Positions 7,122-61,170 of a stretch of DNA of 64,000 bases are shown here, piece by piece. Numbering within the stretch: the stretch's first letter is position 1; every line of letters begins with the position of its first letter. A program made the translations under genes and the position numbers. Below the pieces are notes generated by a model. That model was not told where the DNA came from, made no database searches, and saw only the letters and a list, made by a program, of their open reading frames with translations. The DNA is taken from positions 1,952,001 through 2,016,000 of the forward strand of contig OZ244717.1 in the NCBI GenBank assembly GCA_965218975.1. Direction: 5' to 3'. The DNA comes from Candidatus Oxydemutatoraceae bacterium. GTDB lineage: Bacteria; Pseudomonadota; Gammaproteobacteria; Poriferisulfidales; Oxydemutatoraceae.

Positions 7122-7223
7122 GTGAGACGCGCTCGGAAAACCGATCGGTTTTCAGCGGCGAACGACCCGACAAGGACGTCGGGGCTGGTGCTCATTGACA
7201 GAACCAAGTCTCGTCATGGACGA
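7122..7223 (+). repeat. Structured insert copy 1a (strand given as GTGAG-first orientation)
   Basis: GTGCAGG|GTGAGACGCG...CATGGACGA. Confidence 0.95.
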
Positions 7224-7228
7224 GCAGG

Positions 7229-7344
7229 GTGAGACGCGCCCGGAAAACCGATCGGTTTTCAGCGGCGAACGACCCGACAAGGACGTCGGGGCTGGCGCTC
7301 ATTGACAGAACCAAGTCTCGTCATGGACGACAGGCACTTTGCCG
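7229..7344 (+). repeat. Structured insert copy 1b
   Basis: GAGCAGG|GTGAG...CACTTTGCCG, then transposase sequence GGTTGCGGCCAG. Confidence 0.95.
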
Positions 7345-44550: not shown

Positions 44551-44925
44551 TTACGCCTTTGTTCTCTTAGTGCCGTACTTAGAGCGTCCCTGCTTGCGAT
44601 CTTCGACACCTTGCGTGTCAAAACTCCCGCGTACAGTATGGTACCGAACTCCCGGTAAATCTTTGACTCGACCACCGCGAATCAACACTACCGAGTGCTC
44701 TTGAAGATTATGCCCCTCTCCTCCGATATAAGCAGTCACTTCGTAACTGTTTGTTAAGCGAACACGCGCAACTTTGCGTAAAGCCGAATTTGGCTTTTTA
44801 GGCGTCGTCGTATAAACGCGGGTACAAACGCCCCGCCTTTGCGGACACCCCTCTAATGCCGGCACATTACTTTTAATAGTTTTTTGTTTCCGCGGTTTAC
44901 GCACTAACTGATTAATAGTTACCAT
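44551..44925 (-). CDS. rpsL: 30S protein S12
   Basis: [21 protein letters not shown]. Confidence 0.99.
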
Positions 44926-45182
44926 ATTGTCATATCATAGTGGTAGAGGTATTTTCAGTGGCTGAACCCTACGGGCAAATCCAACTCCTTAAGGTGCCAA
45001 ATTCAGGACCACCTCTGTCGATAAATAAAAGCAGAATATTCTATTAAAAAAAAGTTAAACAGTCAATATGCTTGTACGATGCCACCCTAAATGGGATTTC
45101 TGAAGGGCTTCGGGGGAAGCGTTCGGCAAGTAACATTCGGATCGGTGCTTTCTGTCCGTTGCCGGCATGAGGACGGCGCAGG

Positions 45183-45284
45183 GTGAGACGCGCCCGGAAA
45201 ACCGATCGGTTTTCAGCGGCGAACGACCCGACAAGGATGTCGGGGCTGGCGCTCATTGACAGAACCAAGTCTCGTCATGGACGA
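45183..45284 (+). repeat. Structured insert copy 2a
   Basis: GGCGCAGG|GTGAG...CATGGACGA. Confidence 0.95.
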
Positions 45285-45289
45285 GCAGG

Positions 45290-45437
45290 GTGAGACGCGC
45301 TCGGAAAACCGACCGGTTTTCAGCGGCGAACGACCCGACAAGGATGTCGGGGCTGGCGCTCATTGACAGAACCAAGTCTCGTCACGGATGACAGACACTT
45401 TGCTGATAACACACCAACAAACACAAAACGGTTTCAT
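45290..45437 (+). repeat. Structured insert copy 2b
   Basis: GAGCAGG|GTGAG...AAAACGGTTTCAT. Confidence 0.93.
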
Positions 45438-45641
45438 AACCGGTCATTGAATGCTTCCGTATCGGCGAATAGCAGGTCTTCTGCATGATCGATACAATCT
45501 TCTTGGACGGTGCGGTTGAAGCGCTCGATGTGCGCGTTCATTTTTGGACACTTGGGATAGGTCAGCCACTGCTCAATCACGGGTGATTCCCGGATGAGCC
45601 GGGCAAACTGTCCTTGAAACTCACTCCCGCCGTCCGTCAGG

Positions 45642-45820
45642 GTGAGACGCGCCCGGAAAACCGATCGGTTTTCAGCGGCGAACGACCCGACAAGGACGTC
45701 GGGGCTGGCGCTCATTGACAGAACCAAGTCTTGTCATGGACGACAGGCACTTTGCTGAAAATCCGGCAGCAAACACAAAATGGTTTCATCAGCTCAAAGA
45801 CTTTACTGCTGCCGAAATTC
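45642..45820 (+). repeat. Structured insert copy 2c (long form)
   Basis: CGTCAGG|GTGAG...TGCTGCCGAAATTC. Confidence 0.93.
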
Positions 45821-46131
45821 TGCCAGGCGCAGGAATGCGGCTGCGTTGCGGCTGTTACAGCGGTTGGTTGCCACTGCTATTGCCATTCGGGTATAGACAT
45901 CAATGGCCATTAAGACGTAGCGGCGCACTCCGTGCTGATAACGCACAATCGTATCCAGGGCGATGCAATGCCCCGGATACTGTGCTTTGAAGTGTTTCGG
46001 CTTGCGTGCCCTGCAACGGCGCTTGAACAATCGTTTTGTTTGTCCTTTGGCATTCAGCCGCTGCGGAATACAGCGCATTTCATCCGGCGCATCCGCGATC
46101 AGGCGCGCAATCGCGCGGACACTCGGGCAGG

Positions 46132-46310
46132 GTGAGACGCGCCCGGAAAACCGATCGGTTTTCAGCGGCGAACGACCCGACAAGGATGTCGGGGCTGAGG
46201 TTCATTCGCAGAACCAAGTTTCGTCACGAACGACAGACACTTTACTGACAACACGGCAACAAACACAAAACGGTTTCATCAGCTCAAAGATTTTACTGCT
46301 GCCGAGATTC
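46132..46310 (+). repeat. Structured insert copy 2d (long form)
   Basis: GGGCAGG|GTGAG...TGCTGCCGAGATTC. Confidence 0.93.
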
Positions 46311-46328
46311 GGATAAGCCTGGCACAGG

Positions 46329-46452
46329 GTGAGACGCGCCCGGAAAACCGATCGGTTTTCAGCGGCGAACGACTCGACAAGGACGTCGGGGCTGGCGTTC
46401 ATTGACAGAACCAAGTCTCGTCATGGACGACAAGCACTTTGCTGACAATCCG
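46329..46452 (+). repeat. Structured insert copy 2e
   Basis: GCACAGG|GTGAG...GCTGACAATCCG. Confidence 0.93.
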
Positions 46453-46842
46453 CTGGCACCTCTTACGCGGCACTTTGCCGCGATCATGCAAGGCGCTGAG
46501 GCCAGTGCGGCGATAACGCCGGCGCCAGCGGTACAAAGTACTGCGACCGATCTTGAATGCGTTCGGGAGTTACAACCCTCCCAAAATAATAGGGCATCAT
46601 ATTTCTGTTGAGCTGTTGTGTTCATAATAGCCTCTATATAGCCTCTATTTTTGAAGCAAAATTGGCTCATATAGAAACCTTTGATGCGGTGGCCGATGTG
46701 CTGATATTGCATATCGGTTACCTTTTTGAGTCGTGCCGTGAATCCCACATGTATCTGGCACTGTACACTGGATAAAAATGGGCTAAAATTAAGGTTTTAA
46801 TCCGGTTATCCGTACATTTCCGGAGATCAGATTGGATGGAAT

Positions 46843-47538
46843 ATGAGAATTCAGCATGTAAATCCGAGCACTACCCCGATGCAGAGACAAGCCAATCTGG
46901 TCTTATTCGACTTAGACAATACTCTGTTGGATGGCGATAGTGACTACGAATGGGGGATATTTCTCTGCAATCATCAATTAGTGGATGCGGATGAGTACCG
47001 GAAACAAAACGCGATCTTTTACTCGGAATATTCCTCAGGAAATCTTGATATTCATGATTATCTACGGTTTGTTCTGAAAACTTTTACACAGCATTCGAAA
47101 GAACAATTATTGGAATGGCGAAAACAATTTGTCAATGAGGTTATTGAACCCTTAATCTCACCGGCAAATAAAGCTCTAGTGAGCCGGCACAAAGAAAACG
47201 GTGATATAACAGTAATTATTACTGCGACTAATCAATTTATCACAGAGCCTATCGCAGAAATCTTTGGCGTTGACGATTTGATCGCGACAGAACTGGAAAT
47301 AGTCAATGGGCAGTTTACCGGCCATCCGCAAGGAACGCCCTGCTTCAAAGACGGTAAAGTCATTTGCTTCAAACAATGGCTAAAACGAGTCCGAACACAG
47401 TTTAGGCAACTCTGGTTTTACAGCGACTCAATAAATGATCTGCCTTTACTTGAATACGCGGACAAACCAATTATAAAAAATGGCGAGGCGGATATCGTTG
47501 CGATTGCCAAGCAACGTAATTGGTCTGTCCTGAGATAA
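46843..47538 (+). CDS. HAD-IB hydrolase (SerB-like / histidinol-phosphatase-like); start may be 46879
   Basis: FDLDNTLLDGDSD, ITATN, YSDSINDLPLL. Confidence 0.88.
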   Translation: MRIQHVNPSTTPMQRQANLVLFDLDNTLLDGDSDYEWGIFLCNHQLVDADEYRKQNAIFYSEYSSGNLDIHDYLRFVLKTFTQHSKEQLLEWRKQFVNEVIEPLISPANKALVSRHKENGDITVIITATNQFITEPIAEIFGVDDLIATELEIVNGQFTGHPQGTPCFKDGKVICFKQWLKRVRTQFRQLWFYSDSINDLPLLEYADKPIIKNGEADIVAIAKQRNWSVLR

Positions 47539-57279: not shown

Positions 57280-58023
57280 TGTACGATGCCGATACATTCC
57301 GGATTTTTTAGGGTTGTTTGGGATCAACATCCGGCACGGCGGCTGTCAACCTAAACCGGCATGCGGTCGGCGCATATTGTACCACTTCGAATATGACCAT
57401 AAACACTGTCCCGTCCTAGTGGGATATCTTAGGCGCAGACGACGGATTTCCCTAATCAGGTTTGCGGCCGGATAAAATGCGCTGTATTCCGCAGCGTCTG
57501 AATGCCAAAGGACAAACAAAACGACCGTTCAAGCACCGTTGCAGGGCACGCAAGCCGAAACACTTCAAAGCACAGTATCCGGGGCATTGCATCGCCCTGG
57601 ATACGATCGTGTGTTATCAGCACGGAGTGCGTCGCACCATCTTAACGGCCATCAATGTCTATACACGTATGGCAACAGCAGTGGCAACCAACCGCTGTAA
57701 CAGCCGCAGTGCTGCCGCATTCCTGCGCCGGGCAGAATTTCGGCAGCAGTAAAGTCTTTTGAGCTGATGAAACCGTTTTGTGTTTGTTGCCGGATTTTCG
57801 GCAAAGCGTCTGTCGTCCATGACGAGACTTGGTTCTGTCAATGAGCGCCAGCCCCGATGTCCTTGTCGGGTCGTTCGCCGCTGAAAACCGATCGGTTTTC
57901 CGGGCGCGTCTCACCCTGCACCGCCCTCATGCCGGCAACGGACAGAAAGCACCGGTCCGAATGTTACTGCCGAACTCTTCCCTCAAAGTGCTTCAAAAAT
58001 CCCATTTAGGGTGGCATCGTACA
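57280..58023. mobile_element. Hybrid IS481 remnant (locus 3): related-subfamily fragment on - (57280-~57470) fused to main-family fragment on + (~57467-58023) with one insert
   Basis: Both outer ends read TGTACGATGCC. Minus part encodes LIREIRRLRLRYP and LWSYSKWYNMRRPHAGLG*; plus part encodes PDKMR..ALDTIV..FLRRA, insert, LHRPHAG..WHRT. Confidence 0.8.
57735..57914 (-). repeat. Structured insert copy 3 (long form)
   Basis: + strand GAATTTCGGCAGCA...GCGCGTCTCAC|CCTGCAC. Confidence 0.93.
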
Positions 58024-59269: not shown

Positions 59270-59311
59270 GTCCCCCGTCAATCGTTATCGTAGCGCTGCT
59301 TTATTTATGGT

Positions 59312-59680
59312 ATGAAAACAATCAATTATTTTTATCTGGTTTTACTTCCCCTGCTCTTATCGGGGGGACAGTTTTGCTTCAAGAAAGCGTCAATGTCCGT
59401 CGTCTTCCACTCCTTTACGCGTTTTCTGATCTCGGTCGTCACTAACCAGTATTTTTGGATCGCGCTGTTTATCTATGGCATGGCCACATTATTGTGGTTA
59501 TTTATTTTGTCGCGCGTTCCCCTGAGCAAAGCCATTCCTTTTATTGCGTTGACATACGTGATTGTGCCCGTCATGGCTGCGGTTTTTTTTGACGAGAAGC
59601 TACATTTGATGTACTGGATGGGCGTACTGATCATCATAGCTGGAGTTTATATCGCGGCGTCAAATGTATCTGCCGCCTAA
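59312..59680 (+). CDS. small DMT/EamA (ArnE/F-like) membrane protein
   Basis: Four TM segments, GQFCFK, LSRVPLSKAIPF, FFDEK. Confidence 0.8.
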   Translation: MKTINYFYLVLLPLLLSGGQFCFKKASMSVVFHSFTRFLISVVTNQYFWIALFIYGMATLLWLFILSRVPLSKAIPFIALTYVIVPVMAAVFFDEKLHLMYWMGVLIIIAGVYIAASNVSAA

Positions 59681-59775
59681 ACTTGTACGATACCACCCTA
59701 AATGGGATTTTTGAAGCGCTTTGAAGGAAGCGTTCGGCAGTAACATTCGGATCGGTGCTTTCTGTCCATTGCCGG

Positions 59776-59918
59776 GTGAGATGCGCCCGGAAAACCGATC
59801 GGTTTTCAGCGGCGAACGACCCGACAAGGACGTCGGGGCTGGGGCTCATTGACAGAACCAAGCCTCGTCATGGACGACAGACGCTTTGCCGAAAATCCGG
59901 CAGCAAACACAAAACGGT
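59776..59918 (+). repeat. Structured insert copy 4a
   Basis: TTGCCGG|GTGAG...AAAACGGT. Confidence 0.92.
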
Positions 59919-60125
59919 CCCATAACCGGTCATTGAATGCTTGCATATCGGCGAATAGCAGATCTTCTGCATGATCAATACAATCTTCTTAGACCGTACG
60001 GTTGAAGCGCCGATGTGTGCATTCATTTTCGGACACCTGGGATAGGTCAGCCATTGCTCAATCACGGGTGATTCCCGAATGAGCAGGCAAACTGTCCTTG
60101 AAACTCACTACCGCCGTCCATCAGG

Positions 60126-60304
60126 ATGAGGCGCGCCCGGAAAACCGATCGGTTTTCAGCGGCGAACGACCCAACAAGGACGTCGGGGCTGGTGCTCATT
60201 GACAGAACCAAGTCTCGTCATGGACGACAGACGCTTTGCCGAAAATCCGGCAGCAAACACAAAACGGTTTCATCAGCTCAAAGACTTTACTGCTGTCGAA
60301 ATTT
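60126..60304 (+). repeat. Structured insert copy 4b (long form)
   Basis: CATCAGG|ATGAG...TGCTGTCGAAATTT. Confidence 0.92.
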
Positions 60305-60317
60305 TGCCCGGCGCAGG

Positions 60318-60431
60318 GTGAGACGCGCTCGGAAAACCGACCGTTTTCAGCGACGAACGACCCGACAAGGATATCGGGGCTGGGCTCATTGACAGAACCA
60401 AGTTTCGTCATGGACGACGGGCGTTTTACCG
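60318..60431 (+). repeat. Structured insert copy 4c
   Basis: GGCGCAGG|GTGAG...GTTTTACCG. Confidence 0.92.
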
Positions 60432-60763
60432 GGTTGCGGCCGGACGCGCTAGCGCCTCTGGCGCGGTGCTTTGCCGCGGTCATACAAGGTGCGCTGAGTC
60501 CAGTGCGGCGATAACACCGCCGCCAACGGTACAAAGTACTGCGACCGACCTTGAATGCGTTCGAGATTACACCCCTCCCAAAATAATAGGGCATCATATT
60601 TCTATTGAAGTTTAGAGCGCTCATGAGCCTCCATTTTGTTAGCTGAATTGGCTATTTTATAGAAACCTTTGATGCGGTGGCCGATGTGTTGATATTGCAT
60701 ATCGGTCACCTTTTTGAATTAAGCCGTGAGTCCCATATGTATCTGGCACTATACAGTTAAACA

Positions 60764-60867
60764 GGCTATTCTATAGAAACCTTTGATGCGGTGACCAATG
60801 TGCTGATATTGCATATCGGTCACCTTTTTATTGAAAAGTATTTGTCCGGTATGTATCTCACTATGCA
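60764..60867 (-). mobile_element. second, degenerate IS481 left-end fragment
   Basis: Repeats TATAGAAACCTTTGATGCGGTG..GATATTGCATATCGGTCACC and a decayed terminus ATGTATCTCACTATGCA. Confidence 0.75.
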
Positions 60868-60879
60868 CCGGCCAAGGTT

Positions 60880-61170
60880 ATGAAATACTTATCCGCCATA
60901 CTAATATACATTTTTTTTACAGCAACCGGGTGGGCTGAAAAATTACCTGCACCGCTACACTATACACAAAACTGCATCGCCTGCCACGCACGTATGACCG
61001 GTGGCGACGGGAGCATTCTGTACGGCAGAAAAAATGGGCGAGTGCATAACTTGCAAGCGCTGCGTCAACAAGTTAATTACTGTCGCACATCGCTGAACTT
61101 AGATTGGAGTAAGAGCGAAGAAACGCAAGTCATTAATTATTTAAATCAAAATTTCTATCGGTTCCGATAG
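60880..61170 (+). CDS. small monoheme c-type cytochrome
   Basis: Signal peptide, CIACH, YLN..FY.F C-terminus. Confidence 0.8.
   Translation: MKYLSAILIYIFFTATGWAEKLPAPLHYTQNCIACHARMTGGDGSILYGRKNGRVHNLQALRQQVNYCRTSLNLDWSKSEETQVINYLNQNFYRFR

Follow-up and report, generated by a model that had tools for sequence, protein, structure and literature searches.

A three-hairpin repeat with one fixed end behind GG has multiplied within dead IS481-like elements of a gammaproteobacterial symbiont

Hairpin-forming repeats that encode no protein are already known. REP/REPIN sequences and the hairpin elements derived from IS200/IS605 are moved by Y1 HUH transposases. Elements of the IS200/IS605, PATE and REP-RAYT kinds have two fixed ends, each of which carries a hairpin and a cleavage motif of its own. 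Target-primed reverse transcription produces truncated LINE-1 insertions in which the template end sets one terminus, with microhomology at the other, variable end, small target deletions and flanking sequence carried along. IS91/IS801 elements have a fixed end with subterminal palindromes beside a target tetranucleotide, produce no target duplication, and show a variable other end and co-mobilised DNA (PMC13181058, PMC3189936). Ssn nucleases act on single-stranded DNA and are partnered with NTS/SRM hairpin repeats that occur as hundreds of oriented copies; the authors looked in many genomes for a gene bordered by the repeat (Chenal et al. 2025, PMC11893778).

Here we describe a repeat unit from Candidatus Oxydemutatoraceae bacterium, based on a stretch of 64,000 nucleotides (contig OZ244717.1, positions 1,952,001 to 2,016,000; hereafter the window) and on the surrounding genome, a single contig of 2.08 Mb rated 99.4% complete. 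The unit is a discrete, protein-less, three-hairpin module of ~98 bases with a fixed left end, and it has multiplied to about 300-330 copies, nearly all of them within dead IS481-like elements. Its differences from the protein-less hairpin repeats already known are the single fixed end, a GG rule ahead of this end, the replacement of target bases, and the habit of its relatives to reside in tRNA genes.

Two conserved short GGA-loop hairpins, found across the family and in the window units, have the shape of CsrA binding sites (csrA is present in the genome) and thus liken the element to sponge RNAs of the Csr/Rsm type such as CsrB or RsmY/Z through putative CsrA binding; the element differs from these in having no Rfam match to any Csr/Rsm family and in being dispersed, multi-copy and mostly located inside IS or tRNA gene fragments. 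With REP/REPIN sequences it shares being small, protein-less, hairpin-rich, multi-copy and strand-specific beside a short motif, as well as inverted pairs in some carrier genomes. However, it is about 100 bases long with three hairpins and only one fixed end, the far end being variable and including donor flank; a Y1 gene is absent here, and none of eight Y1 loci in other carriers has a family member. Unlike MITEs moved by DDE transposases, the unit has no target duplication, and no intact IS481-like transposase accompanies it (longest open reading frame 246 residues). The LINE-1 type of insertion is matched in the one fixed end, the variable end with microhomology, the target deletions and the carried flank, but not in the bacterial setting or in the absence of reverse transcriptase and A-tail. 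From group II introns the unit is set apart by the lack of an Rfam match (44900-46900, E up to 1) and of RVT_1 in the genome. The likeness to IS91/IS801 comprises the fixed end with palindromes by a tetranucleotide, the missing target duplication, the variable far end, the carrying of neighbouring DNA, and the existence of very short derivatives that share the fixed end (PMC13181058, PMC3189936), whereas on the side of the unit no HUH transposase was found, 12-45 bases are lost, far joints overlap, the target core is only GG, and copies are confined to repeated DNA, i.e., IS here and tRNA genes elsewhere. Finally, the unit resembles the NTS/SRM repeats (PMC11893778) in consisting of hundreds of oriented hairpin repeats, but it has another sequence and size, the sole GIY-YIG protein here has 617 residues, and the small GIY-YIG genes of other carriers are unflanked (0/4).

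The window contains 11 copies of the unit in four IS-derived loci (Table 1; letters denote insertion sites within the IS481-like elements), and their first base is identical in all 11. The copy in focus begins at 60318, directly behind a CAGG. CAGG precedes 10 of the 11 copies and CCGG (59772-59775) the remaining one; the distinct junctions listed in an initial annotation of this DNA are confirmed, and the minus-strand copy is added to them.

Table 1. Repeat units, host sequences and joints in the window
Feature	Coordinates	Strand	Basis or remark
Repeat unit, 96 bases, three hairpins	60318..60413	+	letters; nhmmer unit model
CAGG ahead of the unit, host transposase sequence	60314..60317	+	empty forms of the site read CAGG or TAGG
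Tail of the preceding unit and transposase piece (~codons 100-125, minus-strand reading), native between two units	60224..60317	+	
Repeat unit behind CAGG 60122-60125 (site C flank)	60126..60223	+	
Repeat unit behind CCGG, site A'	59776..59873	+	sole window copy without CAGG
Joint of carried-in transposase piece (left) and native transposase (right), 9-base overlap	45826..45840	+	
Repeat unit at site C, behind CAGG 45638-45641	45642..45739	+	
Repeat unit at site D, behind CAGG 46128-46131	46132..46229	+	
Native transposase piece between sites D and E, CAGG at its end	46280..46328	+	
Repeat unit at site E	46329..46426	+	
Two tandem units, site A, 107-base period	45183..45387	+	second unit behind CAGG of the first unit's own tail
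Two tandem units, site A of another IS copy	7122..7326	+	
Repeat unit, site A of an inverted IS copy	57817..57914	-	
Dead IS481-like element hosting five units	45073..46770	-	best NCBIfam match IS481 family, fragments below cut-off
Transposase fragments of the IS481-like element	45437-45637, 45834-46127, 46427-46620	-	

Across the genome, the unit was found 303 times with a core motif, 306 times with a start motif, and in 328 matches to an nhmmer profile. The profile matches start at model positions 1-4 in 317 cases and end at positions 94-98 in 311, so the unit is a discrete module. Two or three palindromes begin 13 bases from the fixed end, and hairpins with a GGA loop lie, e.g., at 45686-45703 and 45728-45745 of the window. 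The first hairpin (45658-45677) is a perfect 20-base palindrome with a GATC centre, and in variant unit copies both halves are altered together, which preserves the palindrome. Bases 3-8 of the unit (e.g., within 45642-45651, and at every unit start) would correspond to the six-base recognition site of a type IIS restriction enzyme that cuts at an offset, with one cut to either side of the boundary, though this may be chance. Inverted ends were sought on the unit by eye only, and at this level the fixed end bears only weak resemblance to the terminal repeat of IS481-like elements. The plus strand of unit-bearing loci is on the lagging side in 59 of 94 cases, a weak bias of a kind that genes show anyway.

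The sequence ahead of the unit is strongly biased. Over the 306 starts, the preceding tetranucleotide is CAGG in 160 cases and ATGG in 92 (these being unit-to-unit joints), and it ends in GG in 289, far beyond chance at background frequencies of 0.25% of positions for CAGG and 5.2% for GG. Among 33 flank clusters, which were counted by hand and several of which are variants of one site, CAGG is the commonest tetranucleotide in 16 and a GG ending prevails in 29. By our own count, at least 15 distinct flanks meet the unit exactly at base 1, compared to ~5 breakpoints inside the unit and 2-3 a few bases upstream of it. On our reading of the window IS copy, the unit is present at four of the six CAGG on that strand of the backbone; over 974 bases, the backbone has four CAGG on the unit-bearing strand and one on the other. 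The near-invariant part of the rule is GG, while CAGG is a preference of this genome only. Of the target rule of 4-5 nucleotides that had been proposed initially, the host motif ahead of the unit is thus real, yet its core is only GG, and CAGG precedes none of 28 copies in other genomes.

The initial annotation had regarded 45826-45840 as the empty form of the site that is filled at 60318. Its letters were correct: 60310-60317 is followed by the unit start at 60318, and 45826-45840 reads the same eight bases followed by different sequence. As an empty allele, this stretch does not hold, and it is instead a secondary joint between a carried-in piece and native transposase. On the left of the joint (45790-45833) lies a second copy, 5 bases shorter, of the transposase piece that is native to 46280-46328, and on the right lies native transposase about 130 codons downstream of where the carried-in piece belongs. 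From 45638 onward, site C reads host sequence to CAGG, the unit (45642-45739), its tail, the second copy of the D-E transposase piece and, through the 9-base overlap, native transposase. The 15-mer of the joint is present twice in the window, at 45826 (+) and 57715 (-); the latter instance (57715-57729) follows the unit at 57817..57914 (-) after its tail and carried-in piece, and the same joint is seen in 16 of 31 genome-wide copies of that flank. At the locus of the 60318 unit, from which the transposase core between sites C and D is absent, the transposase piece has the site E unit, its native neighbour, on the right; what had been compared was therefore a native right-hand neighbour with a secondary joint.

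True empty sites were found elsewhere in the genome, with the native order taken from a copy at about 279.4-280.1 kb that has an uninterrupted transposase core and from three other empty copies. Directly ahead of the position at which filled copies have the unit, the host sequence reads CAGG twice, CAGC, TAGC and CAGA in five empty copies of site A; CAGG twice, CAAG and CAGA in four of site C; CAGA in one of site D; CAGG twice and TAGG twice in four of site E; and CAGG in one empty copy of a fic-type gene in unique DNA. The site filled at 60318 is therein represented by its empty form four times, with quite different sequence behind CAGG (two copies) or TAGG (two copies). Empty copies hence carry CAGG in 7 of 15 cases, the other eight being variants by one or two bases. 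The outcome under which the initial annotation would have assigned CAGG to the insert, its absence from intact copies, is thus not borne out, and the four bases ahead of the unit are therefore host sequence with the unit beginning at its G, as had been proposed with an insert start at GTGAG.

Filled and empty sites, when aligned, give no sign of target duplication, and it is the host bases right of CAGG that are replaced: ~24 at site A, about 18-25 at site D, 21-33 at site E and, at site C, 12 in a simple form (two genome copies) or about 36-45 in a long form, for which the window unit at 45642..45739 with its tail and carried-in piece (45740-45833) stands in. The far joints overlap by 1-9 bases and head-to-tail arrays share a 2-base overlap. 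A short common tail always stands behind the last unit of an array, and beyond it the far end differs, consisting of an 11-base motif in one to five copies, of sequence native to the flank of site D, or of the whole D-E piece. This piece, native at 46280-46328, is found again behind units of site C, at 45790-45833 and, on the minus strand, at 57730-57773, and also within a copy from another IS481-like subfamily. Unit copies thus carry flank pieces of other copies, with a fixed start and an open end. Several far ends finish in GG, and several others (at site A and in the above-mentioned copy from another subfamily) do not stop at a tetranucleotide resembling the target. The 11-base motif forms a small minisatellite of one to five copies in tails (window 45740-45790 and 46230-46280, and genome-wide) and resembles the host flank of site E.

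One further case lies outside the window and outside any IS. In the fic-type gene (genome 1,034.5-1,035.7 kb), a segment of ~300 bases is present three times in tandem; it opens with base 1 of a truncated unit and closes with a native CAGG that lies twelve codons inside the gene, and the third repeat runs into the intact gene. This triplication shows a CAGG end joined to base 1 of the unit without IS homology. Contigs from the raw reads of four runs contributed only short pieces of many paralogous copies for 59300-61100, with no independent filled or empty allele among them.

The host elements are IS481-like copies whose transposase is read on the minus strand of the window; we mapped its fragments with a 358-residue relative (P0001) and NCBIfam. 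Both P0001 (1.2e-52) and two window fragments (1e-06 and 1.9e-08) match the IS481 family profile NF033577 best, and each scores below its curated cut-off. A transposase match lies within 1.5 kb at 63 of 93 unit-bearing loci, and the upstream flank is itself multi-copy in 174 of 188 unit arrays. Genome-wide, no IS481-like reading frame is intact, with the longest ORF at 246 residues, though about 100 copies remain. The units are antisense to the nearest transposase match in 206 cases and sense in 7, an excess that is inflated by the copying of whole IS and partly explained by the four versus one CAGG per backbone strand. At least four IS481-like subfamilies carry units, one of them in the opposite orientation.

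By plain sequence comparison, the unit is hardly traceable elsewhere: an exact-pattern scan of species-representative genomes gave no match, a BLAST-type search found it in none of 30 relatives, and in 9 of 400 other genomes of the class a wider DNA search yielded partial matches, all of them short and covering one and the same stretch of 35 bases. The family link is detectable only by a structure model, for which a covariance model was built from these partial matches aligned with three window copies. With E up to 0.001 as the threshold, it has matches in 35 of the 150 other genomes sampled from the class, or in 33 of 148 when the unpublished genomes G069 and G170 are set aside, and in a phylum-wide sample it matched 4 genomes of the same class along with one weak match outside the class. 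Several carrier genomes contain over 20 copies, or show them as tandem arrays or inverted pairs; in one carrier (G142), many copies form overlapping inverted pairs, like REPIN doublets. The shared architecture comprises the same first five bases, a first stem made of bases 1-9 with their partner ahead of a conserved single-stranded stretch (the first bases pair about 50 bases downstream), and two further hairpins with GGA in both loops. The GGA-loop hairpins are kept in 29 aligned matches from 19 loci of other genomes (L021-L039), and compensatory changes are seen in 9 of 16 predicted pairs. By this model, the unit is not specific to the present genome but belongs to a wider structured family of the class that often resides within tRNA genes.

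At these 19 loci, GG precedes 25 of 28 matches. By our reading, 14 of the 28 stand behind the first 17-20 bases of a tRNA gene that end at the D-loop GG, and another four are preceded by the final 16-17 bases of such a gene in reverse complement. At 10 of the 19 loci, the element borders with its far end on an intact tRNA gene, meaning that a piece of the gene is present twice and the working gene is kept. In three larger genomes of the class, five copies follow directly behind reading frames (L058-L062), with element bases 2-4 serving as the stop codon on our reading; two of these frames presumably end like a Xer-type recombinase. In the present genome, no unit abutting a tRNA gene was found, the nearest being 156 bases away. 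Rfam gave nothing at E up to 1 in 44900-46900 and only tRNA or noise for the family loci of other genomes, and a description of the family is absent from Rfam 15 and from the literature searched, including that on IS481 in sponge symbionts.

Searches for an enzyme that might move the unit found none. RVT_1 (reverse transcriptase) has no match in the genome and matched in three control genomes. Y1_Tnp (PF01797), Resolvase (serine recombinase) and TnpB-type proteins likewise have no match in the genome, with positive controls for each, while the Y2_Tnp (PF04986) and IS91 (NF033538) profiles matched neither this genome nor the control genomes. The sole GIY-YIG gene is the 617-residue ORF, and no small GIY-YIG nuclease was found in the genome; recA is present. 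Y1 genes exist in all five other carrier genomes examined, where none of eight loci has a family member within ~1.5 kb (E below 0.5), and at none of four loci with a small GIY-YIG gene in other carriers is a family member alongside (E up to 0.01; one weak match at E 0.023).

How did the copies come about? One-ended rolling-circle mobilisation by an HUH-type nickase that is now lost or unrecognised, as for IS91/IS801 or Helitrons, would involve a nick between GG and the first base, displacement of the strand up to a variable stop, and joining of the 5' end behind another GG or CAGG. It would account for a fixed end beside a preferred tetranucleotide, the absence of target duplication, palindromes from 13 bases off the fixed end, the carrying of neighbouring DNA, and tandem arrays that all start at base 1 and end in GG; IS91/IS801 show the same traits, including miniature derivatives sharing one end (PMC13181058, PMC3189936). 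We nevertheless consider it unlikely, because IS91-type insertion removes no target bases while 12-45 are lost here, several far ends lack a target-like tetranucleotide, Y1_Tnp has no match in the genome despite positive controls, and no family member lies near any of the eight Y1 loci of five carriers; the blank Y2_Tnp/IS91 result comes with silent controls. The IS91- or IS200/IS605-like target suggested in the initial annotation accordingly retains its fixed end beside a tetranucleotide and the missing target duplication, but it does not fit the lost target bases and no HUH gene was found. Retro-type spread, in which an RNA of the element (minus sense ending, or plus sense starting, at the fixed end) would be copied by a GG-primed reverse transcriptase with template jumps yielding tandem arrays, strikes us as a still more remote prospect. 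One fixed end, a variable end with microhomology and small target deletions would be the pattern of truncated LINE-1 copies, and the head-to-tail arrays with their 2-base overlap as well as the RNA-like structure with its compensatory changes speak for it, but RVT_1 is absent from a single-contig genome of 99.4% completeness, as is any Rfam ribozyme or intron match. Effectively refuted, with barely any probability remaining, is the suggestion of a group II-type intron 5' remnant with CAGG as an IBS1-like site: only the first five letters would resemble the intron 5' consensus, while Rfam intron match and reverse transcriptase are lacking, the unit is only about 98 bases long, retrohoming truncates the 5' end and not the 3' end, and the first bases pair with their partner ~50 bases downstream. 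By eye, none of a group II domain-5 look-alike (minus strand), hammerhead or HDV-like folds fits, and none is backed by a tool.

It is also possible to do without any dedicated process, with one or few old insertions followed by unequal recombination, microhomology deletions and exchange among the ~100 IS copies, and with CAGG as an inherited flank. Many structures are indeed simple products of unit recombination (the 60318 locus without its C-D stretch; arrays of 197 bases), microhomology deletions are seen, RecA is present, and 174 of 188 arrays have a multi-copy upstream flank. Even so, we see little chance that this suffices: at least 15 flanks meet the exact first base, against ~5 breakpoints inside the unit and 2-3 just upstream; sites A, C, D and E are still in the order of the transposase gene, which calls for two illegitimate joints at every one of them; and unrelated genomes also have GG ahead of the first base, be it in a tRNA, gene-end or IS context.

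We tentatively favour, at somewhat less than even confidence, polar, end-primed copying over cut-and-paste as the origin of new copies. A DNA 3' end that terminates in GG, ideally in CAGG, would anneal to the complementary bases beside the terminus of the element in single-stranded form and be extended from the element's first base. Synthesis would then pass through the unit and a variable distance into the sequence neighbouring the donor copy, until the new strand returns to its own locus at a short homology slightly further on, so that 12-45 target bases drop out. Such rejoining requires homology, which would account for the accumulation of copies in repeated DNA (IS copies here and tRNA genes elsewhere). 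The proposal builds on the observed constancy of the first base, the GG or CAGG that empty sites carry as host sequence, the overlaps at either joint, the replaced bases, donor flank at the far end, and the fic-type triplication; from them we infer the copying itself and a template end, or a bound protein, at that position. The template may have been DNA or RNA, and copying in this general form corresponds to the primed 3' end offered as one option in the initial annotation. That option agrees with the short overlaps, with the replacement of target bases and with a far end that varies, but no reverse transcriptase is present here. Several points count against end-primed copying: no polymerase or nuclease defining the template end was found, an RNA template would be without an enzyme in this genome (no RVT_1 match), host replication slippage alone fails to explain a switch at one nucleotide, and the far ends that finish in GG fit a nickase cutting both ends equally well. 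Moreover, the copies have all had time to diverge, and since many sites multiplied together with whole IS or through recombination between units, independent events are far fewer than copies and not exactly countable. The copying process may be extinct in the present genome.

We give only a small chance to a broader proposal, in which the unit would be a local bloom of a widespread, RNA-shaped gammaproteobacterial element with two CsrA-type GGA hairpins that copies itself from a fixed first base onto GG-ending DNA, possibly with RNA as template. In most lineages this element would reside in tRNA genes, splitting the gene at the D-loop GG and bringing a replacement piece, and in the symbiont it would have entered the transposase genes of IS481 and contributed to the inactivation of every one. 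The present genome illustrates how an entire IS family became disabled. If polar, GG-primed spread is real, a protein-less repeat multiplies in a way that matches no standard class, given that REP/RAYT, MITE, IS91 and retroelement each fail at least one tested feature. The family link makes this question testable, since the same first base follows GG in about a quarter of the sampled genera of the class and some of the hosts may be cultivable, and the conserved GGA hairpins revive the question of whether the element acts as an RNA.
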